Part shown: positions 1 to 24,809 of the stretch, one piece after another | Numbering within the stretch: position 1 is the first letter of the stretch | How the letters are laid out: each line of letters opens with the position of its first letter | Program-made: the position numbers and the translations under genes | The notes under the pieces: model-generated | What the model saw: the letters and a program-made list of their open reading frames with translations, nothing else | Told to the model about the DNA's origin: nothing | The model's database searches: none | Assembly (NCBI GenBank): GCA_020697715.1 | Contig: JAEHCO010000004.1 | Location: 51,665 to 115,664 of the forward strand | Reading direction: 5' to 3' | Length of the DNA: 64,000 bases | Origin: Methanobacteriota archaeon | Lineage (GTDB): Archaea > Thermoplasmatota > Thermoplasmata > SG8-5 > JAGLSY01

Positions 1-1144
1 GGTTCTGGTTGGTCGGGATTATGCAGTTGGCCTTCACGCATACGCCTTTGTCATCGTATGTGTAGTCATGGAATAATATTCCTCTAGGCACATCGACTGC
101 TCCGACGCCTCGGCCAGCCTTCACTTCGTACTTGGGCCTCTCATTGACATTGACACCTTTTTCCAGTAGCTTGTCGATCAGAGCCAGCGTGTCTTCGATG
201 CTGTGCACGATCTCCACCAGCTGGGCCACATTGTTCATGAAAGGATTATGGTTTACTGGTTGAAGTCCGAACTTGCCAGCCCATTCCTTTGCCAGTGGTC
301 CCATCTTTTCATAGTTCAGATTGAACCTGGCGAGTGCGCCGACCATGTATGATTCCCTCTTGTGCTTGGTGTATTTGGCTGTCGAATGCGGCACAACGAA
401 TTCATTTGTTATGCCTTCATACTCTGCAACTGGCCATCGTCCGCCATCCGTAGATCCGATGTCGCCGTCATAGATAGCATATTCATCATCCGCAACAAGA
501 CCGATGAACTCTGTCTCACGTACAAAGTTAGGCAGTTTGTGGGCATGCGCCAGCACGATCTCACCGACCGCGACCACATCAGGTATGGCATCCACCCATT
601 TCTGGCGAATTTCTTTCAATTGCTTTTCCGAAGGTATGTGACTGAAGCCTCCAACTACAAGACTTACTGGATGCACTGTCCTTCCACATATCAGATTGGA
701 GAACTCATTTGCCAATCTGTGTAGTCCGACAATTTTCAGGACCGCATCGGTATGACTGCTTGCTAATGGTACAACACTTGGTGCGCCCAATAGATCAGGA
801 GCTACCAGGTAACCGACATGCAGGACATGGCTTTGCAGGTTCTCCGCATGGATAGCCAGTCGTCTCAATATCTGTGTTTGCTCGGATATCTGAATGTCCA
901 TTGCGGCTTCTGTAGCTTTTAAAGAAGCCAGGCTGTGACCTATCGAGCATATACCGCATATCCTTGAGGTTATGTGGCTCAGCTCATTGTACGGTCTGCC
1001 TCTTACGAATGATTCGAAGAACCTTGGAGCTTCGGATACTTGCCACTGGACGAACTCAACTGTCCCATCCTTTGCGTTCAATACTATATTTCCATGGCCT
1101 TCAACTCTTGTCAAGTGCTCTACATTTATGTTTATCTCAGACAA
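1..1144 (-). CDS. hyhL: Group 3b [NiFe]-hydrogenase large subunit, 3'-truncated by the window edge
   Basis: Not in the ORF track. TTG start at 1144 after GGAGGTGA reads MSEININVEHLTRVEGHG and later RICGICS (L1 motif). Colinear with the paralog at 6439-7764. Confidence 0.92.
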   Translation of the reverse strand, partial: MSEININVEHLTRVEGHGNIVLNAKDGTVEFVQWQVSEAPRFFESFVRGRPYNELSHITSRICGICSIGHSLASLKATEAAMDIQISEQTQILRRLAIHAENLQSHVLHVGYLVAPDLLGAPSVVPLASSHTDAVLKIVGLHRLANEFSNLICGRTVHPVSLVVGGFSHIPSEKQLKEIRQKWVDAIPDVVAVGEIVLAHAHKLPNFVRETEFIGLVADDEYAIYDGDIGSTDGGRWPVAEYEGITNEFVVPHSTAKYTKHKRESYMVGALARFNLNYEKMGPLAKEWAGKFGLQPVNHNPFMNNVAQLVEIVHSIEDTLALIDKLLEKGVNVNERPKYEVKAGRGVGAVDVPRGILFHDYTYDDKGVCVKANCIIPTNQN

Positions 1145-1145
1145 A

Positions 1146-1925
1146 TTAGTCACCTCCTTTATCTTCAAAGTCGCGGTAATTATACATCGTCCTCTTGGTC
1201 ATGATCTCATTCGGACTGAGCCCGTATTTCTTCAAGACCTCGGCATGAGCCTGGGTATGCGGATGGTCCACATATCCTCTGCAAGCCTCGCATTCGCCGC
1301 CATGTGTTGGACATGGCGCTCCACATCCTGCCCGAGCAACTGGACCCATACAGAATCCACCTGTTTCGAACACGCAGATATTCTCATTCTTCTTACACTC
1401 GACACATACCGGGTAGTCTGGTATGGGTAATTTCTTACCTGTTAGAAGTGCCACAAGGACCTTGCCGAACTCATCGGAATCAATGGGGCAGCCAGGTATG
1501 GCAGCGTCCACCTTCACGATCTCGCTCACAGCCCTGTGTTTGATCTGTGCGAAATATGGGTTGGAATCACCCTTGGTTATCTCCGAGCCAGGATGTCTCT
1601 CATAGACCTCGACCTTATTTGCCTCGGCATCCCACTGATTGCCCAGTCTCTGCACACCACCAAGGTGAGCGCATGCTCCGATGGTTATGAGTATGCTGGC
1701 TTGCTCGCGTATCTTCTTTATTCTATCGATATCAATTGGCCTTGCGATGGAACCCTCGATTATGGCTATATCATAATCGTCCGAGTGTTCCTTCATGGCC
1801 TCTCTGAAGGACACTATGTCCACCAGTGCCAATACATCAAGGATGGCCTCCTCCAGGTTCACGACCTGAAGCTGACAACCCTCACAGCTGGCAAAGTCAA
1901 AGAATGCTACTTTGGGTTTACTCAT
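1146..1925 (-). CDS. hyhS: Group 3b [NiFe]-hydrogenase small (delta) subunit
   Basis: FASCEGC, EGS, GACA and GCP proximal-cluster motifs, plus C-terminal PVCxEC...CMGP...C...C...CxxC. Start inferred at MSKPK downstream of GGAGG. Confidence 0.93.
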   Translation of the reverse strand: MSKPKVAFFDFASCEGCQLQVVNLEEAILDVLALVDIVSFREAMKEHSDDYDIAIIEGSIARPIDIDRIKKIREQASILITIGACAHLGGVQRLGNQWDAEANKVEVYERHPGSEITKGDSNPYFAQIKHRAVSEIVKVDAAIPGCPIDSDEFGKVLVALLTGKKLPIPDYPVCVECKKNENICVFETGGFCMGPVARAGCGAPCPTHGGECEACRGYVDHPHTQAHAEVLKKYGLSPNEIMTKRTMYNYRDFEDKGGD

Positions 1926-1979
1926 GTTGGATACCTCCATTTATCATTCCGGTATCTTCAATGAAATCACTTCGCTCTC

Positions 1980-3896
1980 TCATTGAAACGCCTCCGGTTC
2001 ATCTTTAATGTCTTTATAATTGAATACAGGCCCCTCTTTACAGACATATATTCCATTTATCTGGCAGTGACCGCACTTGCCTACACCACATTTCATGCGC
2101 CTTTCCAGAGAGACAATGATATTCTCCTCCGGCATGCCCATGTTAAGCAGATCGCGGTTAACGAACCTGTACATGATCGGTGGGCCAACTACCACAGCGA
2201 TGGTGTTCAATGGATCGAAGGTCACCATAGGCATGATGGTGGTGATAACACCTACCTGTCCATCCCATGACTCGCCCTCTGCACAGGTATCAACGGTCCT
2301 GTGCATTTCGACACCAGGTGTATTCTCCCATTGGGCGATCTCATCCTTGAAGAGAAGCTCACTGGGATCCTTGCAGCCATAGAGGATCATGACCTTGCCA
2401 TAATCAGCACGGTTGTTCAGCACATACTTGATAAGGGAGCGCATTGGAACTATGCCCAATCCACCACCAATGAACAAAATATTCTTTCCCTTCATGTCTT
2501 CCGTGTCAAAGCCAGTACCAAATGGGCCTCTGATCCCGATCTTGTCTCCCTCACTTAGAGAATGAAGCTTATTGGTCAGGTCTCCCACATTCCTCACGAT
2601 GATCTGGAATGTGTTCCCTCCTGGTGGAGAAGATACTGAAATTGGTGCTTCGCCCACACCGTATATGGATACTTCGACGAACTGTCCAGGCACATGACCA
2701 AGGGGCTGGCCGTCATCCAATCCGATCTCGAAGAAGGTCTCGGTCTTGGTGAGTTTCATCATCCGCCTTATGGTCGCGGTCCTTGGTATGTACAATGAAT
2801 CACTGGCAACTATTCCAAGGTCAGATTTCTCTGGCACATGACCCACATTTGCATCAGGTATCGTGTCCATCGTCGCTTCGGCCAGTTTATTGATCAGATT
2901 GACCGGGTCTGCAATGTCAGGAATACATGCACTTGAACATCTTCCACAACCAACACAGGCAACGAAGCCCATGGCATCTGGAAGGTACTTACCCTTCCTG
3001 TTAATCCTGTGGCGATATCTCTCTACGATATCCTCTCTGAATATCTCTCCAGGCGCGACCTTTGTGAAGTCACGGAGCAGGCAGCCATCCCATGTTCTGG
3101 TTCTGACACCAGTGTTGAGATCTAATCCGACCTCGTCATTGACATCATAGCAGAAACATGTTGGACAAACGAGAGTGCAGGAGCCGCATGCCAGACACTG
3201 ATCCGACATCTCCTTCCATACCGAGCTCATGTAATTGTTCGATAGAAGAGAATGCCATGCTTTGGGGCCGACCTTCAAGCCTCTTGTAGCTCTGTCGATC
3301 GCCTCCTGTCGCTTGTTCTTGGCAGCCTCTATCTCCTGAGGCTGTGCATCTCGAGATGTTGCCCTCTGAAGGAGCTCTGCACCTTCAGGAGTTCCCGGAA
3401 GGATAGCATAAAGCACACCCAGGTCTGTAATCATCAGATCGAAGTGCAATTCAGGGGTGCCAGCATCTTTCATCAGGTCCCCATAGAAGGCCTTTTCAGA
3501 GGCCTTCGCGGGCATCACACCTATCAGAAGAGAATTTTTTCTTTTCTGCAAATATATGTCATCAACATTGGTGTCGAAGAAGTATTTGTCCATCTGCTGG
3601 ATCGCTATCAGGTCATATGGATGAACTCCCACAATGACCTTCTTCGTGTCCATAGCTGGAGCAGTGGCCTTCCCAGTCGATATATCGAAATGCATCATTG
3701 TCTCGTACTGAGGCAGATAATACTTCTTGGGTGGAAGAATGGTGACATCATAGTCCAAGCGCAGCTCTGTTGCTGAGTCTAGCGGTCCAAATACGAACTT
3801 ATCTCCTTTGGCCTTCACGCCCTCAACATCCAAAGATTCATCCTGGATCAGGGCATTTATAAAGGCATCGAAATCTTGTTTTGATATTATTTTCAT
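1980..3896 (-). CDS. Fused sulfhydrogenase beta (4Fe-4S, HydB/AsrA-like) and gamma (FAD/NAD(P), HydG/AsrB-like) subunit
   Basis: N-half has CLACGSCTLVCPTCFC and CVGCGRCSSAC. C-half has PGQFV, EAPIS, RGPFG, GGGLG, VVGPP and MKCGVGKCGHC. Confidence 0.9.
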   Translation of the reverse strand: MKIISKQDFDAFINALIQDESLDVEGVKAKGDKFVFGPLDSATELRLDYDVTILPPKKYYLPQYETMMHFDISTGKATAPAMDTKKVIVGVHPYDLIAIQQMDKYFFDTNVDDIYLQKRKNSLLIGVMPAKASEKAFYGDLMKDAGTPELHFDLMITDLGVLYAILPGTPEGAELLQRATSRDAQPQEIEAAKNKRQEAIDRATRGLKVGPKAWHSLLSNNYMSSVWKEMSDQCLACGSCTLVCPTCFCYDVNDEVGLDLNTGVRTRTWDGCLLRDFTKVAPGEIFREDIVERYRHRINRKGKYLPDAMGFVACVGCGRCSSACIPDIADPVNLINKLAEATMDTIPDANVGHVPEKSDLGIVASDSLYIPRTATIRRMMKLTKTETFFEIGLDDGQPLGHVPGQFVEVSIYGVGEAPISVSSPPGGNTFQIIVRNVGDLTNKLHSLSEGDKIGIRGPFGTGFDTEDMKGKNILFIGGGLGIVPMRSLIKYVLNNRADYGKVMILYGCKDPSELLFKDEIAQWENTPGVEMHRTVDTCAEGESWDGQVGVITTIMPMVTFDPLNTIAVVVGPPIMYRFVNRDLLNMGMPEENIIVSLERRMKCGVGKCGHCQINGIYVCKEGPVFNYKDIKDEPEAFQ

Positions 3897-3915
3897 TCTT
3901 ATTCCTCCGCAATTA

Positions 3916-4647
3916 TCAATTAATGACCTTTAGTGCTTCGAACCCATCTGGTGTGTAGCGAAGTTCGAAGGGGTCTGTGGTGTGGTTCACACCTCTCATC
4001 TTGATTATCTGGATCTGTCTCTGGCTCTTGGTGGGATTTATCTGTTCCATTGATAATTTGATTATACCATCAGCAAGGAAATCTATGTCATGCTTGCTGA
4101 ATTTTGGAGAATCCTGGCTCATCTCGGTTATCAAGAATGTTGTTACACCCAGCTTCTTCAGCCATTTGAAGAAGTGGAATAGCTCATCCCTTGGATCATC
4201 CATCTTGAACATCATTTCCACCACGGGTAGAGAATCTATGACCAGAAGGTCAAAACCCATAGCATTCTTCAATGTCTCCAATTGTCTCTTGAAGGTCTCC
4301 ATGTTCACTTTGCCAGTCGGGTCCTCAGGATGTATCCCAGGATCCTGGCTCAGCTTCAACCACTGCTCTCTTGTCGTGGTAAGGTCATAGAGATTCAATC
4401 GCCCCTCCACATTATCGCCCATACCCAGCTTGGTCAGGTGGTACATGAAATTGTCCCGATCCTGCTCAAGTGTTAGATAAAGAGCCTTGGTCTCACCGTC
4501 CTGTGCATTGGCCATCAAAGTACGGTAGGCCAATGTGGACTTCATGGTTCCAGGTGTTCCTGCCAGAAGGACAATGTGTTTATCAGGAATACCTCCGTCC
4601 ATCTTATCATCCAAACCATTAATGTTTAATTTATAGGTTTTTTCCAT
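3916..4647 (-). CDS. KaiC/RAD55-family single-domain ATPase
   Basis: GIP..HIVLLAGTPGTMKST (Walker A variant), LLVIDS (Walker B), ADGII and IIKMRG motifs. Confidence 0.85.
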   Translation of the reverse strand: MEKTYKLNINGLDDKMDGGIPDKHIVLLAGTPGTMKSTLAYRTLMANAQDGETKALYLTLEQDRDNFMYHLTKLGMGDNVEGRLNLYDLTTTREQWLKLSQDPGIHPEDPTGKVNMETFKRQLETLKNAMGFDLLVIDSLPVVEMMFKMDDPRDELFHFFKWLKKLGVTTFLITEMSQDSPKFSKHDIDFLADGIIKLSMEQINPTKSQRQIQIIKMRGVNHTTDPFELRYTPDGFEALKVIN

Positions 4648-4918: not shown

Positions 4919-5974
4919 GTGATAATGACAGAACTGCTAGAAGATGAATTGAATCTCAAAATTCTGGAGAGTATTTGCACGGGCGAAGGAGTGGAAGTGA
5001 ACATAAGTCACCTTGCAAAGACCCTTGATAGACACAGGAACACTATCAAGTCCCAGATAAATGCCTTGTTCAGTCATAATATCATCAATAAACCAGTTTA
5101 TCCATTCAGTTGGTTGTATCATGAATATCCGATGCTCGCGATCGCAAGAGCCGAGCTTCCGAGAAATAATGATACCGAAAGCTGGTTCAAGAGTGATGAG
5201 CACATCTTCGCAGCCTTCCATGTGAGGGATGAGGAATACAATACATTATTGATCGAGTTCCACAAGGACATACATGCCTATGGCCAGTGGAAAAAAGAGA
5301 TAGTCAATACCAATAAGATCCCGCAGAGAGACAGAAGAAATTCAGCCCATGTTCTGGTATTCAGCAATAAGGATATCATAAAGAACAAACCTTACTCTCC
5401 AATATTCATAATGGAGAAGAAGTTCAAGGAAACTGGCAAGCTCAGTCTCAATGAATACAATATCAATAATCTATGTTTCAATATACTCAAGATGCTGGTC
5501 CAGGGAGATGGGATAAGAACCAATGAGAATATGTTGGCCCAGAAGCTGGATGTCCACAGAAAGACCATCGAAAGACGCCTCAGATCATTGAAAGAGGCAG
5601 GCATCATCTCGGATCCTGCATGCAGGTTCCCAAATTTCTTCGTACCACCAGACCAGATACTTGTTTATTATCTGATGGAGGTCAAGAGGACCAAGTCAAA
5701 GATATTAAAGGCAATTGAGAATGATGATCATATACCGATGGCGTGGGAAGCTGGCATAGGCAGATATAATTTCCTTCTCTTTGGTGTGTTCCCCAGCGTG
5801 GAGGACCATTTCGATTGGGAAGACAAGTACGACCACAGATTCAAGGAATGTATAGGGGCCATGAAGAAGATATACCTCTCACCCAGGATGGCCACTCATA
5901 TCGATCAGCAGAAGATATCTCACGGCATTATAAAGAATATGAAGAAGAAAAATGAAAAGGGATCGGATGAGTGA
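4919..5974 (+). CDS. Internally duplicated wHTH/Lrp-AsnC-like transcriptional regulator (paralog of 14186-15238)
   Basis: Two HTH-like segments (LAKTLDRHRNTIKSQINAL; LAQKLDVHRKTIERRLRSL), each followed by a RAM-like alpha/beta region. Confidence 0.7.
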   Translation: MIMTELLEDELNLKILESICTGEGVEVNISHLAKTLDRHRNTIKSQINALFSHNIINKPVYPFSWLYHEYPMLAIARAELPRNNDTESWFKSDEHIFAAFHVRDEEYNTLLIEFHKDIHAYGQWKKEIVNTNKIPQRDRRNSAHVLVFSNKDIIKNKPYSPIFIMEKKFKETGKLSLNEYNINNLCFNILKMLVQGDGIRTNENMLAQKLDVHRKTIERRLRSLKEAGIISDPACRFPNFFVPPDQILVYYLMEVKRTKSKILKAIENDDHIPMAWEAGIGRYNFLLFGVFPSVEDHFDWEDKYDHRFKECIGAMKKIYLSPRMATHIDQQKISHGIIKNMKKKNEKGSDE

Positions 5975-6016: not shown

Positions 6017-6439
6017 TTATTGCTTACCACGATTATCCTGGATCTCTATCAAAGCATAGCGCAGGTTGCATCGCAGTTCCTTACTGATATTCTTACCATC
6101 CATTTTCGAAGCGATCATTTCCATTGCTGGCTCGCCGATGTCTATCAATGCCTCGATGGACCTCCATTGGACAGACGATTCATCATCCACCAGAGCTTTT
6201 ATCAATGGTTCTATAGCACATGGATCTCCAATATGACCAAGGGCCTCGGCAGATCTGTATCTCACTGTCGCATTCGTGTCATGCAATAGTGCCTCTGCCA
6301 GCGGACCAACAGCTGATCCACCTACCCTCTCAAGAGAATTGCGCGCACTTTGTTGCTCCATGCCAGTTCCTGTTCCGCAGGCCTGGATGAGATCAAGGAT
6401 ATCATTTGCTTCATACGAGTTCTGTGACACACTCTCCAT
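6017..6439 (-). CDS. HEAT/PBS-lyase repeat protein
   Basis: VRYRSAEALGHIGDPCAIEPLIKAL and VQWRSIEALIDIG repeats. ATG overlaps the hyhL stop (TGATG at 6439). Confidence 0.8.
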   Translation of the reverse strand: MESVSQNSYEANDILDLIQACGTGTGMEQQSARNSLERVGGSAVGPLAEALLHDTNATVRYRSAEALGHIGDPCAIEPLIKALVDDESSVQWRSIEALIDIGEPAMEMIASKMDGKNISKELRCNLRYALIEIQDNRGKQ

Positions 6440-7764
6440 CAGTTCCCCTCCTTTTTTGTCTCGGAGCCATTGACCCACTCGACATTCAGGTAGTGGGTGG
6501 AGCAGCTTATGCACGGATCATATGCTCTAACGAGCATCTCGAGGTTCAGCTCGATCTCCTTTTCAGGTCTGTCAAGGAGAGTTGGAGCGAAGGCCGCGAA
6601 ATCCTGGTTGATATTGTTGTGGTTCATATTTGTCGGAATTACACAGTTAGCCTTTACACAGTTCCCCTTGTCATCATATTCGTATTCATGGAAGAGAAGA
6701 CCTCTTGGAACCTCCACAGCACCCACACCGCGTCCTGCCTTTGGCGTGACCTTTGGTGTTGGCTCCTGCTTCATTCCACCGTCCAATAGTTCATCGATTA
6801 TCCTGACTGAATCCTCGATGGAGTGAACGAATTCAACGAATTGAGCCACATTGTTCATGAAAGGATTTGGATTAACTGGCTTGAGTCCGAACTTGTCAGC
6901 CCATTCCTTGGCCAGCGGACTAAGCTTATCGGCATTCAGGTTGAACCGGGCCAATGCTCCAACCATGTATGAGTCGCGTTTATTCTTGGTGAACTTGGCT
7001 GTGGAGTATGGAACTACGAACTCATTCACAATGGTCTTGTAAGCATCCGCATGCTGAGGCTCCTCATCGGTTGATCCGACCATTCCATCATACAGGGCAT
7101 ATTCGTCATCCGTGACCAGAGCGATATATTCCGTATCCCTCTTGAAATCCGGAAGAGCTCCTGCATTGGCAAGTATGACCTCGCCGACCGCATTGCCTGT
7201 TGGAACCATGTCCAGCAAGTTCTGTCTGATATCCTTCAGTGCATATGGAGATGGTGTCTTGTATATACCGCCTGGCACCAGATTGGTAGGATGTGTCGTC
7301 CTGCCGCATATCAGGTCGGACATCAAGTTCGCCTGCCTGTGGAGCTTGACAATAGCCAAAACCTCATCGGGGTTTGAACCGACGAGTGGCACCACGCTTC
7401 CAACTCCAAAGAGATCTGGAGCTACAAGGTATCCGACATGGAGTATGTGGCTCTGAAGATTCTCGGCATGGATAGCCAGCCTTCTAAGTTTCTGGCTCTG
7501 CTCGGATATCTCGATGTCCATCGCGGCTTCAGTGGCTTTCAATGAAGCCAGTGTGTGACCGATTGAACAGATACCACATATCCTGGACGTTATTGGAGCC
7601 AGCTGATTGTATGGCTTACCTCTGACGAAGGATTCAAAGAGACGTGGGGCCTCGGAGACCTGCCACTGTATCTTCTCAATGGTACCGTCCTTCGCATTCA
7701 GGACGATGTTTCCATGTCCCTCCACTCTTGTCAAATGCTCTACATTAATGTTTATTTCACTCAT
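6439..7764 (-). CDS. hyhL: Group 3b-type [NiFe]-hydrogenase large subunit (second copy)
   Basis: TRVEGHG, RICGICS (L1) and DPCISCSTH (L2), followed by a cleavable C-terminal extension. Confidence 0.95.
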   Translation of the reverse strand: MSEININVEHLTRVEGHGNIVLNAKDGTIEKIQWQVSEAPRLFESFVRGKPYNQLAPITSRICGICSIGHTLASLKATEAAMDIEISEQSQKLRRLAIHAENLQSHILHVGYLVAPDLFGVGSVVPLVGSNPDEVLAIVKLHRQANLMSDLICGRTTHPTNLVPGGIYKTPSPYALKDIRQNLLDMVPTGNAVGEVILANAGALPDFKRDTEYIALVTDDEYALYDGMVGSTDEEPQHADAYKTIVNEFVVPYSTAKFTKNKRDSYMVGALARFNLNADKLSPLAKEWADKFGLKPVNPNPFMNNVAQFVEFVHSIEDSVRIIDELLDGGMKQEPTPKVTPKAGRGVGAVEVPRGLLFHEYEYDDKGNCVKANCVIPTNMNHNNINQDFAAFAPTLLDRPEKEIELNLEMLVRAYDPCISCSTHYLNVEWVNGSETKKEGN

Positions 7765-7820
7765 ATTCGACCCCTCCATTTCATTCCGGGCTCTTGAATG
7801 TGCTCAGTTCGTTCGCACAT

Positions 7821-8501
7821 TCAAAATCCCTCCTGAGTCATGATCTTTTCAAGCATCTCCATCGAATCATAGGAGAATACCTTGGCTGCTACAAGTATCT
7901 CTTCTTTTGTGAAGCCAGCATCCTTGTATGCCTTCAATCCGAATCTGAGGATATCCTCATTGGCCATTATCGAATGACAACCCTCACACCTGTATCCTTT
8001 TCTGGTACAGTAAGCATTACAGTTGGCATATGTCAATGGCCCCAGGCAAAGCTCTCCTCTTGTCAGAAGACAACCTTCACCCTGATTCGGGCATTCGGCA
8101 CATACTGGCACTCCATTAATATCATAATCCCTGCATAGCTTGGCGAATTGGCATTCGCCGCTGACTGGGCAATCCCTGCACTTCTGCACATGCTCCGACA
8201 GCAGAAGTTCGACAACTGTCCTTCTTGCCTGATATACAGCATCACTGATAGTAGATACAGACAATCCAGAAGAAACAGGCATCGTACAACTTGGTTGAAG
8301 CCCAGGTCTGCCACCTGCTTTCACCTCGACCAAGCAGAGTCTACAAGATCCGATCCTTTGTTCAGGGAACAGTGGATTGAAGCAAAGAGTTGGTATGTCA
8401 ACCGAGTTCGCTCTTGCCACATCCAGTACTGTCTGGTTCGGCTCTCCAGCATAGTCCTTTCCATCTATCACTATGTTTATTTTGAATGAAGTCGTTGCCA
8501 T
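7821..8501 (-). CDS. Chimeric Fe-S subunit: HydA/NuoG-like N-terminal [2Fe-2S] and His-ligated [4Fe-4S], fused to the C-terminal Fe-S domain of a NiFe small subunit
   Basis: IPTLC...SCRLCLVEV...PSC and HxxxCxxCxxxxxC (HVQKCRDCPVSGEC), then PVCAEC...CLGP...C..YC...CEGC. Confidence 0.8.
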   Translation of the reverse strand: MATTSFKINIVIDGKDYAGEPNQTVLDVARANSVDIPTLCFNPLFPEQRIGSCRLCLVEVKAGGRPGLQPSCTMPVSSGLSVSTISDAVYQARRTVVELLLSEHVQKCRDCPVSGECQFAKLCRDYDINGVPVCAECPNQGEGCLLTRGELCLGPLTYANCNAYCTRKGYRCEGCHSIMANEDILRFGLKAYKDAGFTKEEILVAAKVFSYDSMEMLEKIMTQEGF

Positions 8502-11500
8502 TATTCATCACCTCCTTCGCTTTCCGCACTGAGATCACACCTCAGACACCTGGATGCCTCTTTCTTGGCACATTCAGGGTCCATGCACATGACAACTTCC
8601 TCGAAGCCGCATGTTCTGTCATCAGCGTTTAGTTCTTTCACGCCCTGCCTCTGCATTGGTTCTGCATTGTCTGGTTCGACATTGGAATAGTTGGTATTGT
8701 TCATCTTTTCCAACTGGGCCAATCGGTCATTGCCACCCAAGAACAGATCGATGTTCCTGGCCGCCCTCTTACCATCAGCCACCACGTCGATCACACTTGC
8801 AGGTCCAGTTACCGCATCTCCACCAGCGAATATCTTCGGGAACCAAGCTGAGCTTCCTGTTCCTTCAACAGGTATCCACCTTGAATCGCCCACGATATTC
8901 ATTCCACCAGCGAAGTCAGTATCCAATTGCTGTCCAATGGCATTGACCACACGGTCGGCCCTTATCTCGACAGTCTCATCGGTAGCGACAGGTGATCTGC
9001 GACCCCACTTGGTGAAATCGCCCATGACATTCTTTCTGAAGACAGCTCCAACGACCTTTCCGCCTTCCACGATGAGTTTCTCGGGTGCGACCAGGAAGTG
9101 ATATTCCACACCTTCCTCTCTGCAGTGTTCGATCTCCTCATCATAAGCTGGCATGTCATCCTCTTCTCGTCTGTAGCAGACGGTGACCTTGGTTCCCATT
9201 CGAATTGCAGTTCTGGCAACATCTATGGCAACGTTCCCACCGCCTATCACGAGAATGCTCTGACCCAGATCGACCGACTTGCCACTATTCATTTCCTTGA
9301 GCAGCTGAAGACCTGGAAGCACGCCTGGAAGTTCCTCGCCTTCCAGCCCCAGCTTCGTGTCCTTCTGGGCTCCGATGGCCAGGTATACCGCATCATTATC
9401 ATTGAGCAGTGTTTCCATTGTTATGTCCTTACCCACACTAGTATTTGTTTTGGCCACAACACCCAGGTCGATAATGTCCTGGATCTCTTTGTCGATGATC
9501 TCATGTGGCAGCCTGTACTTTGGAATTCCATATCGTACCCAGCCGCCCATTTTTTCTTGAGCTTCATAGATGGTTGGCTTGTACCCCATCCTTCTCAGGA
9601 AGTAGGCTGCTGAAAGACCAGATGGCCCTCCACCCACAATGGCGATGGTCTTGTCCACATCATCAAGTGTGGATATCTTTCCAACACCTGCTTTGAAAGC
9701 CTCATCTGAAGCATATCTCTTGAGCTCACGAATGGCTATTGGCTCATCCAACTGCGCACGCTGGCATCTTCCTTCACAAGGGTGCTCACAGACCCTTCCA
9801 CAAATGGATGGGAAGGGGTTTGCCTCTCTATTGACATCATATGCCTCTGCGTACCTGCCTTCAGTTATCAATTGTATGTAGCCGGGCACATTGGTACCTG
9901 CTGGGCAAGTGTTCTGACATGGCGATTTGAACATGGCCGCACAAACAGATGCATCACATATCTTGTTCTCAATGTGGTCCACATACTCGTTCATGAAGTA
10001 CTTCATGGTGGTCATGATCGGATTGGGTGCTGTTCCTCCAAGGGCGCAAAGTGCACTCGCACTAACTTGCTCTGAAAGGCTCGTCAGTACCTCAAGGTCT
10101 TCCATCACACCTTCTCCGTGACATATCTTCTCAAGTATCTCCAGCAATCTTCTTGTTCCGATCCTGCAAGGAGTACATTTCCCACATGATTCCTCGGCTG
10201 TGAAAGTGAGGAAGTATCTTGCGACATCCACCATGCAGGTGTCCTCATCGAGAACCACCATTCCACCAGATCCAACAATGGAACCCAGTGTTTTCAGGTT
10301 ATCATAATCCACGGGGATATCCAGGTGTTCCTCGGGTATACAACCTCCAGATGGACCACCGGTCTGAACGGCCTTGAACTTGCGACCATCCATGATACCG
10401 CCGCCGATCTCGTAGATGATGTCCTTCATCGGAATTCCCATTGGAACCTCGATAAGACCTGCGCGGTTCACTTTTCCTACTAAGGAGAAAACCTTGGTTC
10501 CAGTGCTTTTCTCAGTCCCCATGGTGGAGAACCATTCCCCGCCCCTCTGAAGGATCATAGCGATATTGGCCCATGTCTCGACATTGTTGATATTCGTAGG
10601 CTTGCCCCAAAGACCACTGACAGCAGGGAATGGAGGTCTTGGCCTTGGTTCGCCTCTCTTACCCTCGATGGAGTTTATGAGCGCGGTCTCTTCACCACAA
10701 ACGAATACACCAGCTCCCTCACGGATATGTATCCTGAAGCTGTAGTCCATTCCAAAGACACGATCACCAAGTATACCATGTTCCTCTGCAGAAGCAATAG
10801 CTTTCTTCAGTTTTTCGATGGCCAGTGGGTATTCAGCACGGATGTAGATGTATCCGTCCGTTGCTCCCATTGCGTATCCTCCAATTATCATACCTTCGAT
10901 AACACTGTGTGGATCTCCTTCCAGAACTGCACGATCCATGTAAGCACCAGGATCTCCTTCATCAGCATTACAGATGACGTATTTCACGTCACCTGGAGCC
11001 TTGTGACAGAACTCCCATTTCAAACCAGTTGGGAAACCTGCTCCACCTCTTCCGCGGATCCCGGAAGTCTTGACCTCGCCGATTATCTCTTCGGGTGTCA
11101 ATTCGAACAATGATCTGTAAGCAGCTCTGTAACCGCCCCTGGCTATGTATTCCTCAATATCTTCAGGAACAACAATTCCACAGTTCCTCAAGGCCACCCT
11201 TATCTGCTTGGCAAAGAAAGGTAGATCCTGATATTTTGGGATACCATCATAGACATCGGTCTCGGCAATTACACCATGCTCACACTCGGATATCTCGTCT
11301 GTAAGCTGGCACATTGCAAGCTCAGTTACTGGTTCCTCACCAACAAGGTGCTCATCCAGTATCTTCTTCAGTTTGTCAATGTCCATGTCCGAATAGGTAA
11401 CACGTGGCTTTCCAGGTAATTTGATGTCGACCAATGGTTCCGCGTGGCACATACCGATGCAACCAACGGAAACGATGTCCGCATGAACATCGTTCTCATC

Positions 11501-11653
11501 CAGATACATCTCAGCATATTCCTTGAGCGGCATTCCGCCAGCTGCTATTCCACAGGTGGCCAATCCAAATATCACCTGGGGTGTTCCATTATCCATGGAC
11601 TCCTTACCCCTCTGGGCCATGTCCCTGAGGTGGACTATCTTGCTTATTTTCAT
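8501..11653 (-). CDS. HydB/NuoF-like diaphorase subunit with N-terminal thioredoxin-like [2Fe-2S] domain, fused to a GltD/NfnB-like FAD/NADPH domain
   Basis: GRGGAGFPTG, NADEGDPG, CGEET, GGPSGG and ESCGKCTPC; then CQNTCP, CGRVCEHPCE, GGGPSG and GGGNVA...YRR. Confidence 0.9.
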   Translation of the reverse strand: MKISKIVHLRDMAQRGKESMDNGTPQVIFGLATCGIAAGGMPLKEYAEMYLDENDVHADIVSVGCIGMCHAEPLVDIKLPGKPRVTYSDMDIDKLKKILDEHLVGEEPVTELAMCQLTDEISECEHGVIAETDVYDGIPKYQDLPFFAKQIRVALRNCGIVVPEDIEEYIARGGYRAAYRSLFELTPEEIIGEVKTSGIRGRGGAGFPTGLKWEFCHKAPGDVKYVICNADEGDPGAYMDRAVLEGDPHSVIEGMIIGGYAMGATDGYIYIRAEYPLAIEKLKKAIASAEEHGILGDRVFGMDYSFRIHIREGAGVFVCGEETALINSIEGKRGEPRPRPPFPAVSGLWGKPTNINNVETWANIAMILQRGGEWFSTMGTEKSTGTKVFSLVGKVNRAGLIEVPMGIPMKDIIYEIGGGIMDGRKFKAVQTGGPSGGCIPEEHLDIPVDYDNLKTLGSIVGSGGMVVLDEDTCMVDVARYFLTFTAEESCGKCTPCRIGTRRLLEILEKICHGEGVMEDLEVLTSLSEQVSASALCALGGTAPNPIMTTMKYFMNEYVDHIENKICDASVCAAMFKSPCQNTCPAGTNVPGYIQLITEGRYAEAYDVNREANPFPSICGRVCEHPCEGRCQRAQLDEPIAIRELKRYASDEAFKAGVGKISTLDDVDKTIAIVGGGPSGLSAAYFLRRMGYKPTIYEAQEKMGGWVRYGIPKYRLPHEIIDKEIQDIIDLGVVAKTNTSVGKDITMETLLNDNDAVYLAIGAQKDTKLGLEGEELPGVLPGLQLLKEMNSGKSVDLGQSILVIGGGNVAIDVARTAIRMGTKVTVCYRREEDDMPAYDEEIEHCREEGVEYHFLVAPEKLIVEGGKVVGAVFRKNVMGDFTKWGRRSPVATDETVEIRADRVVNAIGQQLDTDFAGGMNIVGDSRWIPVEGTGSSAWFPKIFAGGDAVTGPASVIDVVADGKRAARNIDLFLGGNDRLAQLEKMNNTNYSNVEPDNAEPMQRQGVKELNADDRTCGFEEVVMCMDPECAKKEASRCLRCDLSAESEGGDE

Positions 11654-12129
11654 TCAGCAACCTCCTCGGTCTTGTAAGAATCAAGTATCTTTTGAAGGCC
11701 GCCTTTCTTCACACGACCATATGTCTCTTCATCTATCATGATAACAGGCGAAAGACCACAGCAACCCAGACATCTGACAGACTCTAGTGAAAAGAGTCCA
11801 TCTTTTGTGGTTCCGCCGGGTTTGATCTCCAGAATATCTTCCAATTCCTGTGCGATACCAGAGCCACCTCTGACGTGGCACGCTGTACCACTGCAGACCT
11901 TGATGGTGTGCTTTCCAGGCGGATCAAATCTGAATTGTGGGTAGAAAGATACAACACCATAAAGCTCAGTTAATGAATATTCACTGTTCTCGGAAACATA
12001 TGTGAGATATTCTTCTCCGACATATCCAAGAATTTCCTGAATATTCTGAAGGATAACGAGCTGCGGATCATCTATATTTGAATAAGTATCTAGTATAGTA
12101 TCTATAATGAATTTGTCTTTAGCTTCCAT
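11650..12129 (-). CDS. HydC/NuoE-like [2Fe-2S] subunit
   Basis: VCSGTACH...RCLGCCGLSP motif; ATGA overlap with the downstream gene. Confidence 0.92.
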   Translation of the reverse strand: MEAKDKFIIDTILDTYSNIDDPQLVILQNIQEILGYVGEEYLTYVSENSEYSLTELYGVVSFYPQFRFDPPGKHTIKVCSGTACHVRGGSGIAQELEDILEIKPGGTTKDGLFSLESVRCLGCCGLSPVIMIDEETYGRVKKGGLQKILDSYKTEEVAE

Positions 12130-12185
12130 TCAGAATCCCTCCATTTTCATTACGGGATTTTTAATGAAATCGCTTTGCTCTCTCA

Positions 12186-13967
12186 TTAAAACTCACCTCC
12201 TTTTATCTGCTTGTCATAAGCCTCGATTATCTGCTTGGAGAACCAAACTGGCCCTTTGGACTCGCCCTTGAAATTCCTCAGGTAGTCCCTGCGCTGATCA
12301 ATAATATCTATCGAAGTAGTTGGTATGGTTCCACCACCAGTTAGGCAACCGTGGAAACATGGGTAAAATTCTACCACATTGTATCTTTTAGCGATGTCCT
12401 TTGTCAGGTATTTACTAGCCTTTGCCAGATCCTCGATTATGAGGGCATTGAAGAATCCTTCTTCACTGTCGAAGGCCATTTCGTGAACATAATCCTCAAG
12501 AGTGGTCACAGCCAGCCTGGCATCGAGATTATTGAACTTTCTCATGTAAGCCGTCTGTATTATTGCCAATGAGTAAGCATAGTCACTGCTCGCACCCTTG
12601 ACAAACACACTGGACAAACCAAGCTCGCAATCGAACACACCATCAGCAGGATCATGGAAATCAATGTCCACGCCCTTCTGCTTGAGAAGCCTTGGAAGCT
12701 CTCTGGCGGTCAAGACCGCATCGATCTTCGAATTGCCCTTGTGGACGATACATGGCGACAGAAGGATTATCTTCAAAGTCTTCTCTCCCTTAGTGTATCT
12801 CTCACCCAGAACATCCAACATCATCTGCTCAGGCGATGACACTTTCTGCAGATTCTTCTTGAATTCAGGATGGAATTTTCGGATATACGAATTGGCACTT
12901 GGACACCATGATGTGAAGACCATGTCGTCGTTCTCGCTAACATAGGTTCCCTGCGCTGCCAATGAAAGATAATTGAAGTGGGTGAAATCCACAACCCTGT
13001 CGGCTCCCAGTGATTTTAATGACGCTATGAGACTTCCCAATGCCTCGCCAAAGTCATCTCTGTCTGTTGGTAGGACCTCCATGGCTGCTGCCGCAGCCGT
13101 GAGATCGATGGCGAACACAACAAAATTGTTGGGATCATCAAGTAATCCAATAGCCTTCTCCACATCGGAATGTTCGGAAAAAGCACCGACCGGACAGTTG
13201 ACCAGACACTGTCCGCATGATATGCATTTATTATCATCCAGGCCCTTATTGAAAGGCGTGGATATGATGGATTCATTTCCTTTATTTGTCAATCCAATGG
13301 CATGAATATCCAGGATCTCATTGCACACGATATCGCAATGCCTGCACAGTATGCATTTCTGAGGATCATATTGGATGATGGATCTTGTGTCGGCCTCCAT
13401 TTCCCTTGCGGTAACACCGAATCTCAGATCCAGATTCTTCCTTGGGGCCATCGTGGTAAGACGCCTTATGTAGTACAGGACCTGTTCTTTCCGGACTGGA
13501 CATCCACGGATATAGAAATCAACATCCACGACCTCATTGAGCTTCTTTGTCGGGAAGACGTCGAAATACTCATTGTTCGCAATGTCCGCATCCGCATATA
13601 CTTCTTTAAGATTCTCCGCATCTGGCCATTGGTTCCTCAGTTTATTGACACAACCAGTTGTGGCACAATCACCAAGAGCGATGAGGATCTTGGCATTGGC
13701 CCTGATCTCTTTCAGTCTTTTCTCATCAACTGGCCTGTTTATCGAACCCTCAATGAAGGCTATATCGTAGTCATCGGAATGTTCCTTCATGACCTCACGA
13801 AATGAGACTACCTCCACTGTATCCAAAAGCTCGAGGATATCCTCCTCAAGATTGGCTATCTGCAGTTCACATCCTTCACAGCTTGCAAAATCAAAAATAC
13901 CTACCTTATACTTAGGTGCGGTTTGGGCACTTTTGACACTTTCTACATCAGAAACTACCATAGTCAT
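12186..13967 (-). CDS. Hybrid subunit: NiFe small-subunit N-domain, 2x[4Fe-4S] ferredoxin and [FeFe]-hydrogenase H-cluster-like domain (group F-like)
   Basis: FASCEGC/GDCA/RGCP, then CILCRHC and CISCGQC, then TSWCP, SPCIVHK and EFYPCFHGCLTGGG, which align to the FeFe L1/L2/L3 motifs. Confidence 0.82.
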   Translation of the reverse strand: MTMVVSDVESVKSAQTAPKYKVGIFDFASCEGCELQIANLEEDILELLDTVEVVSFREVMKEHSDDYDIAFIEGSINRPVDEKRLKEIRANAKILIALGDCATTGCVNKLRNQWPDAENLKEVYADADIANNEYFDVFPTKKLNEVVDVDFYIRGCPVRKEQVLYYIRRLTTMAPRKNLDLRFGVTAREMEADTRSIIQYDPQKCILCRHCDIVCNEILDIHAIGLTNKGNESIISTPFNKGLDDNKCISCGQCLVNCPVGAFSEHSDVEKAIGLLDDPNNFVVFAIDLTAAAAAMEVLPTDRDDFGEALGSLIASLKSLGADRVVDFTHFNYLSLAAQGTYVSENDDMVFTSWCPSANSYIRKFHPEFKKNLQKVSSPEQMMLDVLGERYTKGEKTLKIILLSPCIVHKGNSKIDAVLTARELPRLLKQKGVDIDFHDPADGVFDCELGLSSVFVKGASSDYAYSLAIIQTAYMRKFNNLDARLAVTTLEDYVHEMAFDSEEGFFNALIIEDLAKASKYLTKDIAKRYNVVEFYPCFHGCLTGGGTIPTTSIDIIDQRRDYLRNFKGESKGPVWFSKQIIEAYDKQIKGGEF

Positions 13968-14185: not shown

Positions 14186-15238
14186 ATGGCCGATATGCTA
14201 GAAGACGAACTTTCTCTCGCAATACTCGAAAAGATATGTGATGGTGTCGGAGTGAGCATCAATGTAAGTGCTCTGGCCAAAAGCCTCGATCGCCACAGAA
14301 ATACAATAAAATCACAGGTGACCGCACTTTTCGAGAATGGAATATTGACAGCCCCCTACTATCCTTTCACCGGACTTTTCAAGGAACGACCACTTTTTTC
14401 CATTGTCAGGGCAGACCTTCCGAGGCAGGCCAGGATCGACAAGTTCTTGGCAGAGGATGATACAATATTCGCCTCTTTCAAATCATGGGATGATGGTTAT
14501 AACACATTGCTCTTCGAATTCCACAAGAGCATGTCCTCATACTTCTACTGGAAAGAGAAAATAGTGGAGGACGATAAGTTACCTCCACTAGAAAACCGAT
14601 TCCCTGCCGATGTAGTATTTGTCAATAATGAACTTTTATTCAAATATGATCCAAATTCCAGCATAGCGTGCATGGATAAGAGATTCGATAAAGATGGAGA
14701 AATAATACTCAATGGCTACAAGTTGAATGAACTTGGATTCAATATCCTGAAAAAATTATTGGTAGGAGAAGGCATCAAGACCAATGAACATCTGCTGTCG
14801 AAGGAACTGGACACCCACAGAAAGACCATTGAGAAAAGGATAGAGGCCTTGACACAGGCGAGACTTATTACACCGCCTGTTTGCAGATTCCCTCAATTCT
14901 GCATACCACCAGGGCATGTGTTTGTCGTGAGCTTCATCAGGATCGATAAGTGCAAGGAACAGATCATCCAGTATATTCGGGATGATCCATGTGTGCCGAT
15001 CGCCTACAGGGGTCATGTGGGCAAATACAACCTACTATATTTCGGAGTCTTCCCCAATGTGGAGGAGCACTTCAACTGGGAGGAGATCCTGCATGCGAAA
15101 TTCAAGGACGAGTGCTTCGGAGTAATGAAGAAAATATACTTGTCTGAGAATATGACGGTTTCTATTGATAGAAAGAAGGTATCATTTGGAGTTCTGAAGG
15201 AGAAAAGAGCAGAACTGGAAGCCACGAAAACAAAGTGA
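14186..15238 (+). CDS. Internally duplicated wHTH/Lrp-AsnC-like regulator (paralog of 4919-5974)
   Basis: LAKSLDRHRNTIKSQV and LSKELDTHRKTIEKRI segments; colinear with 4919-5974. Confidence 0.7.
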   Translation: MADMLEDELSLAILEKICDGVGVSINVSALAKSLDRHRNTIKSQVTALFENGILTAPYYPFTGLFKERPLFSIVRADLPRQARIDKFLAEDDTIFASFKSWDDGYNTLLFEFHKSMSSYFYWKEKIVEDDKLPPLENRFPADVVFVNNELLFKYDPNSSIACMDKRFDKDGEIILNGYKLNELGFNILKKLLVGEGIKTNEHLLSKELDTHRKTIEKRIEALTQARLITPPVCRFPQFCIPPGHVFVVSFIRIDKCKEQIIQYIRDDPCVPIAYRGHVGKYNLLYFGVFPNVEEHFNWEEILHAKFKDECFGVMKKIYLSENMTVSIDRKKVSFGVLKEKRAELEATKTK

Positions 15239-24718: not shown

Positions 24719-24809
24719 GACCAGGTTATTTCATTATGATCATTTTAGTATTTTTCATTTTACTATTTTGCCAAAACAATTCTATAGTTACTGATAATTG
24801 TATAAGTGC

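Follow-up and report, generated by a model that had tools for sequence, protein, structure and literature searches.

Cross-joined halves of HydA and a [NiFe] small subunit in two chimeric proteins of an archaeal hybrid hydrogenase operon

The hybrid operon

The window analyzed here, a 64-kb (64,000 nucleotide) stretch of an archaeal contig, carries on its minus strand five adjacent genes that encode parts of both a [NiFe] and an [FeFe] hydrogenase. The first (12186..13967) encodes a 593 aa HydA-HyhS fusion, in which Pfam and phmmer matches to PDB chains identify a [NiFe] small-subunit N-domain (SN), a 2x[4Fe-4S] domain, and an H-domain. It is followed by hydC (11650..12129), which encodes a NuoE-like, thioredoxin-like [2Fe-2S] protein (PF01257, 4e-43), by hydB (8501..11653), which encodes a 1050 aa protein with NuoF-like and GltD/NfnB-like parts (Pfam, PDB matches), by hydD (7821..8501), which encodes a 226 aa chimera of a HydA N-terminus and a HyhS C-domain with four Fe-S clusters (Pfam, BLASTP, phmmer), and by hyhL (6439..7779), which encodes a group 3 [NiFe] large subunit with a C-terminal extension (PF00374, motifs). 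hydC overlaps the start of hydB by 4 nt, and the start and stop of hydD and hydB overlap too. An earlier, sequence-only reading of this DNA had proposed that two chimeras bracket nuoE-like and nuoF-like genes, with hyhL next; both chimeric ORFs have exactly the coordinates and strand it gave, and Pfam confirms the genes between and beyond them. The [NiFe] ligand motifs of HyhL (RICGICSIGH ... DPCISCSTH) are intact in the translation.

A conventional hyhBG-hyhS-hyhL operon is encoded apart from these genes (2-3896, minus strand), and the hybrid operon contains neither hyhB nor hyhG. The conventional hyhL (2-1147, minus strand) and the HyhL of the hybrid operon share 71% identity, and hypF is also present in the window. 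Divergently transcribed from the hybrid operon is a gene for an HTH protein (14186..15238, plus strand), a putative operon regulator judging from weak HTH Pfam matches. An HTH gene occupies the same position in three related loci (L001, L002, and L005), and the conventional hydrogenase operon has a paralogue with 47% identity on its upstream side (4919-5974).

The same five-gene cluster is found in the published group F enzymes (Greening et al. 2024, Cell, PMC11216029), and the enzyme type is thus not new. The fusion polypeptide, with Oxidored_q6 (residues 30-169, 8e-25) and Fe_hyd_lg_C (residues 308-545, 1e-25) in one 593 aa ORF, the contiguous hydC, hydB with a glutamate-synthase-like domain, four-cluster hydD, and hyhL, and the H-cluster Cys ligands (the Cys of SWC, SPC, and PCxxGC) all agree with a group F [FeFe]/group 3f [NiFe] hybrid. 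We consider it very probable that the operon encodes such a hybrid, as a five-subunit soluble complex built on a HydBC (Bfu-type) flavin core. The sequence-only reading had brought up group F in this context, and the architecture and gene order bear it out. Its suggestion that the reciprocal split of two subunits might be novel did not survive, as published group F has the identical split and all 17 complete loci share it. These five genes are present in this order in 17 of the 17 complete related loci examined; the chimeric arrangement is kept in every one, which is far beyond chance. The same hybrid operon also occurs in Balneolales bacteria, which widens the host range and may provide hosts more amenable to culture than the MAG lineages of archaea. 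A homologue search run with a neighboring gene makes it unlikely that the Balneolales loci are mis-binned archaeal contigs.

The HydA-HyhS fusion and its H-domain

SN (residues 19-170; 13458..13913, minus strand) was delimited by alignment to HyhS and to the delta subunit of Pyrococcus furiosus sulfhydrogenase I (SHI). The N-terminus of the fusion is 53% identical to residues 8-157 of the HyhS encoded in the window (E 2e-46) and aligns to residues 2-147 of SHI delta (phmmer, PDB). The ligands of its proximal [4Fe-4S] cluster are C30, C33, C101, and C156, of which three are kept in 23/23 family members and the second is Asp in L018-L021. The ferredoxin-type 2x[4Fe-4S] domain (residues ~195-265; 13173..13385, minus strand) matches Fer4 families (dicluster at 197-263) and contains the motifs CILCRHCDIVC and CISCGQCLVNCP, whose Cys are conserved. 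The H-domain follows (residues ~285-593; 12189..13115, minus strand; Fe_hyd_lg_C). The ferredoxin and H-domains form one continuous alignment to bifurcating HydA1 (8a6t), with residues 180-558 of the fusion matching residues 121-517 (E 8e-45). The AF2 model of the fusion has a mean pLDDT of 81.6, and its top Foldseek matches are T. maritima HydA, T. kivui HydA, and CpI, over ~440-500 columns. Pfam and the PDB alignments thus agree with the three-part composition that had been read from the sequence.

Sequence change is much faster in the H-domain than elsewhere in the complex: identity between subclades is only ~25%, as compared to 60-79% for SN and 57-76% for HyhL. Furthermore, Fe_hyd_lg_C goes undetected by Pfam in a subfamily of short (~494 aa) fusions, and a Trp occupies the position of the CpI proton-relay Cys, C299, in 23/23 fusions. 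Substitution of this Cys is known to cause loss of activity in group A enzymes. These features are consistent with a Bfu-type enzyme that effectively works through its [NiFe] site alone. In the native host, the H-domain would then lack the [2Fe] subsite and hold only the [4Fe-4S] subcluster, and its task would be to transfer electrons at the end of the chain, to dock ferredoxin, or to act as a sensor. A precedent is the degenerate C-terminal domain of A. mobile HydA, with its A5 cluster (PMC8880783), and some relatives, on Planctomycetota-labelled contigs, are joined to sensor-kinase domains (a receiver and a histidine-kinase ATPase). An NCBIfam scan that covered 20 large ORFs in the 15.7-59.5 kb part of the window found no hydE, hydF, or hydG, and of the 130 archaeal genomes that encode [FeFe] hydrogenases, just 5 have full maturase sets (PMC11216029); the window, however, is only 64 kb of the genome. 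Against a noncatalytic H-domain, all four H-cluster Cys, located in the motifs FTSWCP, SPCIVHK, and PCFHGCLTGGG, are invariant in 23 fusions and in A2, as is the GGG loop, and the domain is predicted to adopt the HydA fold with pLDDT >90. Moreover, H2 evolution has been published for two artificially matured group F fusions (Th1 and Th2), one of which reached ~5% of CrHydA1 once a synthetic [2Fe] cofactor had been inserted (PMC11216029). On balance, a [NiFe]-only enzyme is a serious but somewhat doubtful alternative to a hybrid with two working catalysts.

The flavin core and HydD

HydB consists of a NuoF-like FMN/NADH module (residues 1-560; 9974-11653, minus strand; Pfam) and a GltD/NfnB-like 2x[4Fe-4S]+FAD/NAD(P)H module (residues 561-1050; 8504-9973, minus strand; Pfam, PDB matches). 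The GltD-type FAD/NADP(H) module on this nuoF-like gene had been overlooked in the sequence-only reading. The best PDB matches of HydB are bifurcating HydB/BfuB chains, led by A. mobile NiFe-HydB (7t2r_B; residues 43-578, 2e-212), and its C-terminal half (residues 576-1040) is most similar to the NADP(H)-binding, GltD-like module of Nfn-Bfu/Stn, as found in 9bov_A (Nfn-Bfu) and 8oh5_C. Together with HydC, HydB provides the FMN/NADH site and NuoF-type [4Fe-4S] cluster of BfuB and the [2Fe-2S] cluster of BfuC that characterize Bfu/HydABC enzymes (Complex1_51K 2e-48, NADH_4Fe-4S 1e-31, 2Fe-2S_thioredx 4e-43). The match to 7t2r_B ends at residue 543 of 597, after which comes a GltD-type Fer4_20 dicluster (562-655). 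HydB therefore has no canonical C-terminal ferredoxin-type 2x[4Fe-4S] (B3/B4) domain of the kind found in bifurcating HydB. On BfuB, this domain is needed for the low-potential branch, and true bifurcation is thus not assured.

HydD is the second chimera. Its N-terminal part, AN (residues 1-130; 8112..8501, minus strand; phmmer, Foldseek), holds a HydA/NuoG-type [2Fe-2S] and a His-ligated [4Fe-4S] cluster, with Fer2_4 at residues 7-85 (8e-18) and NADH-G_4Fe-4S_3 at 93-130 (6e-10). Residues 8-136 align to residues 4-128 of HydA1 (7q4v; phmmer E 1e-22). The AF2 model of HydD (mean pLDDT 86) has a confident HydA-N-like fold for residues 1-125, which superimposes on 7t30_A, 8a6t_A, and CpI with an rmsd of ~2 Å over ~122 columns. 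The remainder, SC (residues 131-226; 7824..8111, minus strand; phmmer, BLASTP), is a [NiFe] small-subunit C-domain with eight Cys for the medial and distal [4Fe-4S] clusters. HydD 111-215 aligns to residues 151-259 of the intact HyhS in the window (1146-1940) with all eight Cys in register (BLASTP E 3e-11; SC is 26% identical), and the C-terminus aligns to residues 160-250 of SHI delta (phmmer E 7e-16). The 50 best Foldseek matches of the full-length HydD model covered only the N-terminal ~122 residues and left the SC half unmatched, so the SC assignment rests on sequence. An alignment of 40 sequences shows invariant C40/C53/C56/C72, H104/C108/C111/C117, and eight C-terminal Cys. C-terminal fragments carry the JGI label 'F420-reducing hydrogenase gamma subunit'.

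These results uphold the sequence-only reading of HydD as a [2Fe-2S], a His-ligated [4Fe-4S], and a small-subunit C-domain, which it had made dependent on this C-terminus being related to that of HyhS. The Cys motifs it quoted occur as written in the translations, and the HMMs it named for a check match as follows: Oxidored_q6 and Fe_hyd_lg_C on the fusion, and Fer2_4 and NADH-G_4Fe-4S_3 on HydD.

Origin of the crossed subunits

The segments matched by the two chimeras are complementary. SHI delta is represented by residues 2-147 in the fusion and 160-250 in HydD, and HydA1 by residues 4-128 in HydD and 121-517 in the fusion. The breakpoints are clean, at most about 10-20 residues wide in either parent. 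One HydA and one group-3b-like small subunit have been split at their inter-domain linkers and rejoined crosswise as two polypeptides, and the claim that the chimeras jointly comprise exactly these two proteins is borne out by the complementary alignments to solved structures.

No part is missing or doubled, each parent is cut at a single linker with the four pieces summing exactly, and both chimeras occur together in all complete loci. In addition, the adjacencies hydB to AN and SC to hyhL fit the hydC-hydB-hydA-hydS-hydL order of neighboring A. mobile-type operons, so that one excision and re-insertion would explain both genes. The competing explanation is that the chimeras arose independently and stepwise, for example if hyhS-N was joined to an M2-type HydA in one lineage and, in a separate step, a HoxU/NuoG-like protein acquired a small-subunit C-domain. 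SN and SC have diverged unequally from the in-window HyhS (53% versus 26% identity), and their similarities to 57 intact HyhS genes are uncorrelated (rho 0.17, p 0.21), a result that says little because SC is short and diverged. None of 80 loci showed an intermediate or parental architecture that would fix the order of events; each was a complete hybrid, a conventional hyhBG-hyhS-hyhL operon, or an operon of the A. mobile type. We regard the stepwise route as rather unlikely. The last alternative, that the HydD C-terminal domain is an ordinary NuoG/HoxU-type ferredoxin dicluster and hence that there was no swap, starts from the facts that HoxU, NuoG, and HydA normally have 2x[4Fe-4S] after the His-ligated cluster and that the group F authors term HydD 'NuoG-like' (PMC11216029), but it is refuted by Pfam, BLASTP, and phmmer and is extremely improbable: residues 131-226 have no Pfam match, Fer4 families included, the Cys spacing is CxxCx6Cx7Cx8Cx3Cx6CxxC and not CxxCxxCxxxCP, the matches to small-subunit C-domains are specific, and the alignments of HydD to HydA, NuoG, and HoxU end at ~120-136.

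A reciprocal exchange and a noncatalytic H-domain can be combined into a broader conjecture, which we consider quite improbable as it stands. A single recombination in an ancestral hydC-hydB-hydA-hyhS-hyhL operon would have left hydD as a deletion scar, and the fusion would be the excised circle re-inserted upstream. It is similarly speculative that the enzyme, with its fast-evolving and Trp-substituted H-domain, is not a two-catalyst hydrogenase in vivo, and that this domain holds only [4Fe-4S] and serves for electron exit or sensing. The conjecture also takes in the reach of the family beyond archaea, to the Balneolales bacteria and to the sensor-kinase fusions on Planctomycetota-labelled contigs.

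Discussion

Apart from the Asp in L018-L021, the cluster ligands are conserved across ~40 HydD and 23-39 fusion homologues, and the parts suggest how the complex may be wired. The fusion combines a proximal-cluster domain, which must sit on HyhL, with two ferredoxin-type clusters and the H-domain. HydD combines the [2Fe-2S] and His-ligated [4Fe-4S] clusters, which are linked to HydB in HydABC and NiFe-HydABCSL, with the medial/distal cluster domain. Electrons from the [NiFe] site could then pass via the proximal cluster and HydD to the FMN of HydB, the site of NAD(H) binding, and those from the H-domain via the two ferredoxin clusters and HydD to the same FMN; the GltD-type FAD module may add another branch, serving NADP(H) or a carrier of low potential. 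With a part of each arm on each polypeptide, neither catalytic module would be expected to reach the flavin core unless both chimeras are present. SC may dock on SN and so rebuild a small subunit that interlocks the two arms, as the sequence-only reading supposed, or the fused ferredoxin domain may occupy the 'medial' position, an arrangement known from A. mobile and Hox enzymes. Direct electron transfer from the proximal cluster to a ferredoxin-type cluster of HydA is described for A. mobile NiFe-HydABCSL (PMC8880783). The likely role of the complex is that of a reversible redox valve which couples H2 to pyridine nucleotides and ferredoxin (Greening et al. 2024, PMC11216029).

Comparison with known systems

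Both HydA pieces are closest, in sequence and in fold, to the trimeric bifurcating FeFe-HydABC enzymes (T. maritima 7P5H, T. kivui 8A6T, A. woodii 7Q4V). Their order of [2Fe-2S], His-ligated [4Fe-4S], 2x[4Fe-4S], and H-domain is that of HydD 1-130 joined to fusion 180-593. The hybrid differs in that a cut behind the His-ligated cluster divides HydA, the proton-relay Cys has given way to Trp, and there is an additional [NiFe] module. Relative to group 3b sulfhydrogenase (P. furiosus SHI, 9E1J/9NEZ), SN and SC amount to the whole delta subunit (2-147 and 160-250), but the small subunit is spread over two genes, and HydBCD take the place of the HyhB and HyhG partners.

The electron-bifurcating NiFe-HydABCSL of Acetomicrobium mobile (7T2R/7T30; Feng et al. 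2022, PMC8880783) shares HydB, HydC, the N-terminal clusters of HydA, a small-subunit N-domain with the proximal cluster, a group 3 large subunit, and the Y-shaped cluster junction. Its HydA, however, is one chain (AN-Fd-CTD) whose CTD has no H-cluster ligands, its HydS is free-standing with the proximal cluster only and no SC anywhere, and its HydB has no GltD module. The hybrid operon encodes neither such a HydA nor a free HydS; HydA is split with its H-cluster ligands kept, SN is fused, SC is present, and HydB has the GltD module. This GltD-like 2x[4Fe-4S]+FAD NADP(H) module on a Bfu core is shared with Nfn-Bfu and Stn (9BOV, 9N5U, 8OH5), where it resides in BfuA; in the hybrid it is at the C-terminus of HydB, replacing the usual ferredoxin-type domain.

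To our knowledge, the hybrid hydrogenases are the only complex shared by the [NiFe] and [FeFe] classes, two unrelated classes of H2-activating enzymes. The published group F/3f hybrid (Thermoplasmatota UBA147 model; SG8-5 Th1/Th2 proteins) has the same fusion, HydC, HydB with a glutamate-synthase-like domain, four-cluster HydD, and HyhL, H-cluster Cys are present, and the host class (Thermoplasmata-related archaea) is also shared; we find no architectural difference. An AF2-multimer model of the complex has been published, and the main text of that paper describes HydD as a NuoG-like conduit with four clusters, whose cofactors were placed from 7T2R chain A and 5ODC chain E, a [NiFe] small subunit (PMC11216029). 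Since these templates are a HydA chain and a small-subunit chain, the cross-over is implicit in the paper but not spelled out in its main text. Where HydD was called NuoG-like, we find a genuine small-subunit C-domain, and where the three [4Fe-4S] clusters of the fusion were credited to 'the [NiFe] component', two belong to a HydA-type ferredoxin domain adjoining the H-domain. The present analysis adds an explicit parts map, in which a single cut at a linker divides HydA and likewise the small subunit, with the halves joined crosswise, an arrangement fixed across the family. The map corrects the attribution of the two clusters, raises a testable doubt about H-domain catalysis in vivo, and points structural biologists to the interface of SN with either SC or the ferredoxin domain.

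The hybrid operon and its crossed subunits

The minus strand of the window carries five consecutive head-to-tail ORFs, which encode a HyhS-HydA fusion (12186-13967(-), 593 aa), HydC (11650-12129(-), 159 aa), HydB (8501-11653(-), 1050 aa), HydD (7821-8501(-), 226 aa), and the large subunit HyhL (6439-7779(-), 446 aa). The overlap is 4 nt between hydC and hydB and 1 nt between hydB and hydD. This operon is the group F [FeFe]/group 3f [NiFe] hybrid hydrogenase of Greening et al. 2024, defined by a HyhS-HydA fusion with contiguous HydC, HydB, HydD, and HyhL (PMC11216029). Pfam mapping placed Oxidored_q6 at residues 30-169, a ferredoxin-type dicluster at 197-263, and Fe_hyd_lg_C at 308-545 of the fusion. 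HydD contains Fer2_4 and NADH-G_4Fe-4S_3, followed by ~95 residues without a Pfam match. HydC has a NuoE-type thioredoxin-like [2Fe-2S] fold, HydB consists of NuoF FMN and [4Fe-4S] domains and then Fer4_20 and Pyr_redox_2 (a GltD/NfnB-like module), and HyhL is a [NiFe] large subunit with complete RICGICSIGH and DPCISCSTH motifs and a C-terminal extension. Immediately 3' of hyhL lies a small HEAT/PBS-lyase-repeat protein gene (6017-6514(-)), which also follows hyhL in the related locus L001 and is close to the operon in L005; the listed ORF runs into the end of hyhL, and the true start codon therefore probably lies further in.

The sequence-only reading had proposed a reciprocal swap, with the N-domain of HyhS joined to the C-terminal part of HydA in the fusion and the N-terminal part of HydA joined to the C-domain of HyhS in HydD. 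Alignments to the intact HyhS of the window and to independent references confirmed this architecture in full. The C-terminus of HydD is related to HyhS: residues 111-215 align with HyhS 151-259 (E 3e-11) with all eight Cys in register, and residues 131-220 align with 160-250 of the P. furiosus sulfhydrogenase I delta subunit (E 7e-16). The N-terminus of the fusion is 53% identical to HyhS residues 8-157 (E 2e-46), and fusion 19-168 matches delta 2-147 (E 5e-21). The other halves belong to bifurcating HydA1, with HydD 8-136 aligning with 4-128 (7q4v, E 1e-22) and fusion 180-558 with 121-517 (8a6t, E 8e-45). By the complementarity of these alignments each parent is cut once, at a linker, and the pieces show no loss and no duplication. 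Other genomes supplied 57 intact hyhS genes, and in these the stretches corresponding to the two small-subunit domains are separated by only 28-70 nt (median 34). Both AF2 models are of high confidence. That of HydD has a mean pLDDT of 86, and its residues 1 to ~122 superpose at about 2 A on HydA/NuoG N-termini. The fusion model (mean pLDDT 81.6, H-domain above 90) finds its best fold matches in T. maritima HydA, T. kivui HydA, and CpI. As anatomy, the earlier interpretation is right.

Conservation and distribution

Scanning one genome per species gave 80 loci, of which 22 encode a full-length fusion; the remaining 58 hold conventional hyhBG-hyhS-hyhL operons, in which the small subunit is undivided. 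The identical five genes, order, and split recur in all 17 loci long enough to span the whole operon. The ligands of all four HydD clusters are invariant (40 sequences). In all 23 fusion sequences the Cys residues of the ferredoxin domain and the four of the H-cluster are conserved, and three of the four proximal-cluster Cys are retained. In the fusions of one subclade (L018-L021) Asp takes the place of the second Cys in the CxxC motif of the proximal cluster (CEGD), which recalls the Asp-ligated proximal cluster of F420-reducing hydrogenase. In a large protein collection each chimera forms roughly 85-90 clusters at 90% identity, which carry no more than generic annotations such as '2Fe-2S binding protein', 'YjgC', or 'F420-reducing hydrogenase gamma subunit'.

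At the hybrid locus, the window shares 96% identity with the public MAG JAEHCQ01 ('Methanobacteriota archaeon SF.bin11'), and the flap endonuclease and aIF-2 encoded in the window mark it as archaeal. A complete group F-type operon was also observed in about ten species-representative MAGs from soda-lake sediments labelled Balneolales, Balneolaceae, or Cyclonatronaceae (L007-L014, L016, and L017; e.g., L016:9713-16805). The named sequences nearest to an FNR-like gene in the flank of one such operon (L016:2917-3870) come from cultured Balneolaceae (67% to strain ANBcel3, ~58% to Fodinibius/Aliifodinibius), and thus the contigs look genuinely bacterial. The 2024 survey was confined to archaeal genomes (PMC11216029).

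Another hydrogenase operon, at 2-4647(-), is of the conventional group 3b type. It comprises genes for a KaiC-like ATPase (3916-4647(-)) and a HyhB-HyhG fusion (1980-3896(-), 638 aa), the undivided hyhS (1146-1940(-)), and a hyhL truncated at the start of the window (2-1147(-)). The two operons are paired likewise in L001, L003, L004, and L061. Two paralogous HTH proteins of ~350 aa (47% identical) are encoded at 14186-15238(+) and 4919-5974(+), each divergent from one of the hydrogenase operons, and the position of the former is conserved in L001, L002, and L005. These paralogues may be operon-specific regulators.

Predicted wiring of the complex

HydB best matches NiFe-HydB of the bifurcating A. 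mobile enzyme, which has a solved structure (2e-212), and its C-terminal half best matches the GltD-like module with which Nfn-Bfu and Stn enzymes bind NADP(H); by homology, the complex has a HydBC core. The small-subunit N-domain of the fusion would bind HyhL, the H-domain would be wired via the two ferredoxin-type clusters of the fusion, and both routes would arrive at the His-ligated [4Fe-4S] and [2Fe-2S] clusters of HydD, which in HydABC and NiFe-HydABCSL lead to the HydB flavin (PMC8880783). With part of each arm on each chimera, the two hydrogenase modules would not be independently wirable. The covalent interlock proposed earlier is sound to that extent, as structural logic; an obligate interlock stays a hypothesis. 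In the A. mobile and Hox enzymes, a ferredoxin-type cluster of HydA/HoxU occupies the place of a medial cluster. By analogy, the small-subunit C-domain of HydD and the fused ferredoxin domain may compete for the site beside the proximal cluster. The canonical ferredoxin-type B3/B4 domain is missing from HydB of the window, which leaves true bifurcation uncertain.

Is the H-domain a second catalyst?

A substantive alternative, though less likely than not, is that the H-domain is no second catalyst in vivo. All 23 fusions carry Trp (motif FTSWCP, residues ~351-356 of the window's fusion) at the position of CpI C299, the proton-relay Cys next to the H-cluster of group A enzymes. Identity of the H-domain between subclades is only about 25%, compared with 60-79% for the small-subunit N-domain, 50-70% for HydD, and 57-76% for HyhL. 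The fusion family divides into a long subfamily (569-593 aa), which includes the window protein and has a Pfam-detectable H-domain, and a short one (~494-512 aa) in which Pfam does not recognise it. An NCBIfam scan of 20 large ORFs at 15.7-59.5 kb of the window found no hydE/F/G; hypF, the [NiFe] maturation carbamoyltransferase, is present at 24798-27062(+), about 11 kb from the operon (TIGR00143, 1e-208). Maturases are absent from most archaeal genomes with [FeFe] hydrogenases (PMC11216029), and the equivalent A. mobile domain retains only a [4Fe-4S] cluster (PMC8880783). Against this alternative stand the invariance of the four H-cluster Cys and the GGG loop, and the activity of the published fusion protein Th1 once artificially matured (PMC11216029).

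Two fusion homologues, P0316 (869 aa) and P0295 (859 aa), one of them labelled Planctomycetota, carry an N-terminal response-regulator receiver and histidine-kinase ATPase domain before the small-subunit N-domain, two [4Fe-4S] clusters, and a short H-like domain. Such fusions suggest that the module may also serve in sensing.

Origin of the two chimeras

The hybrid HyhL is 71% identical to the partly present conventional HyhL (2-1147(-)); identity to the conventional HyhS is 53% for the N-domain and 26% for the C-domain. Operons of the A. mobile type (hydC-hydB-hydA-hydS-hydL) adjoin group F operons in eight loci, upstream and divergent in L018-L021 and downstream in L007, L009, L011, and L017, so that both kinds of Bfu-type [NiFe] hydrogenase occur in one genome. 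From a supposed ancestor, hydC-hydB-hydA-hyhS-hyhL, one recombination between the hydA and hyhS linkers could yield both chimeras: the HydA-N/HyhS-C gene would be left in place between hydB and hyhL, and a released circle, its junction joining the HyhS N-domain to the ferredoxin domain, would re-insert upstream of hydC to give the fusion. Such a scheme would account for the existence of both chimeras as well as for their clean breakpoints and the kept adjacencies. In a crude congruence test, the similarities of the two small-subunit domains to 57 intact HyhS genes did not correlate (rho 0.17, p 0.21), which, the C-domain being short and diverged, weighs neither for nor against a common origin. 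No intermediate architectures were found among the 80 loci, and the single-event origin stays a hypothesis that we infer.

Comparison with the published hybrid

Because the system has already been published, the interest of the locus is modest, and the bacterial hosts, sensor fusions, invariant Trp, and paired regulators are most worth pursuing. The hybrid was found in 21 archaeal genomes, Thermoplasmata among them; two fusion proteins made H2 once a synthetic [2Fe] cofactor was inserted, and the five-subunit complex was predicted to be stable by AF2-multimer (PMC11216029). The published HydB has a glutamate-synthase-like domain, and HydD is described as a 'NuoG-like conduit' with four clusters (PMC11216029). 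In the main text, three [4Fe-4S] clusters that the fusion carries are counted with the [NiFe] component, and a small-subunit C-domain on HydD goes unmentioned (PMC11216029). According to the methods, HydD cofactors were placed from 7T2R chain A and 5ODC chain E, the latter a [NiFe] small subunit (PMC11216029), so that the published model already contains the cross-over implicitly. The sequence-only reading had left undecided whether this exact reciprocal split was new: the architecture stands, and the novelty does not, as the published group F enzymes have the same gene set and implicitly the same cross-over (PMC11216029).
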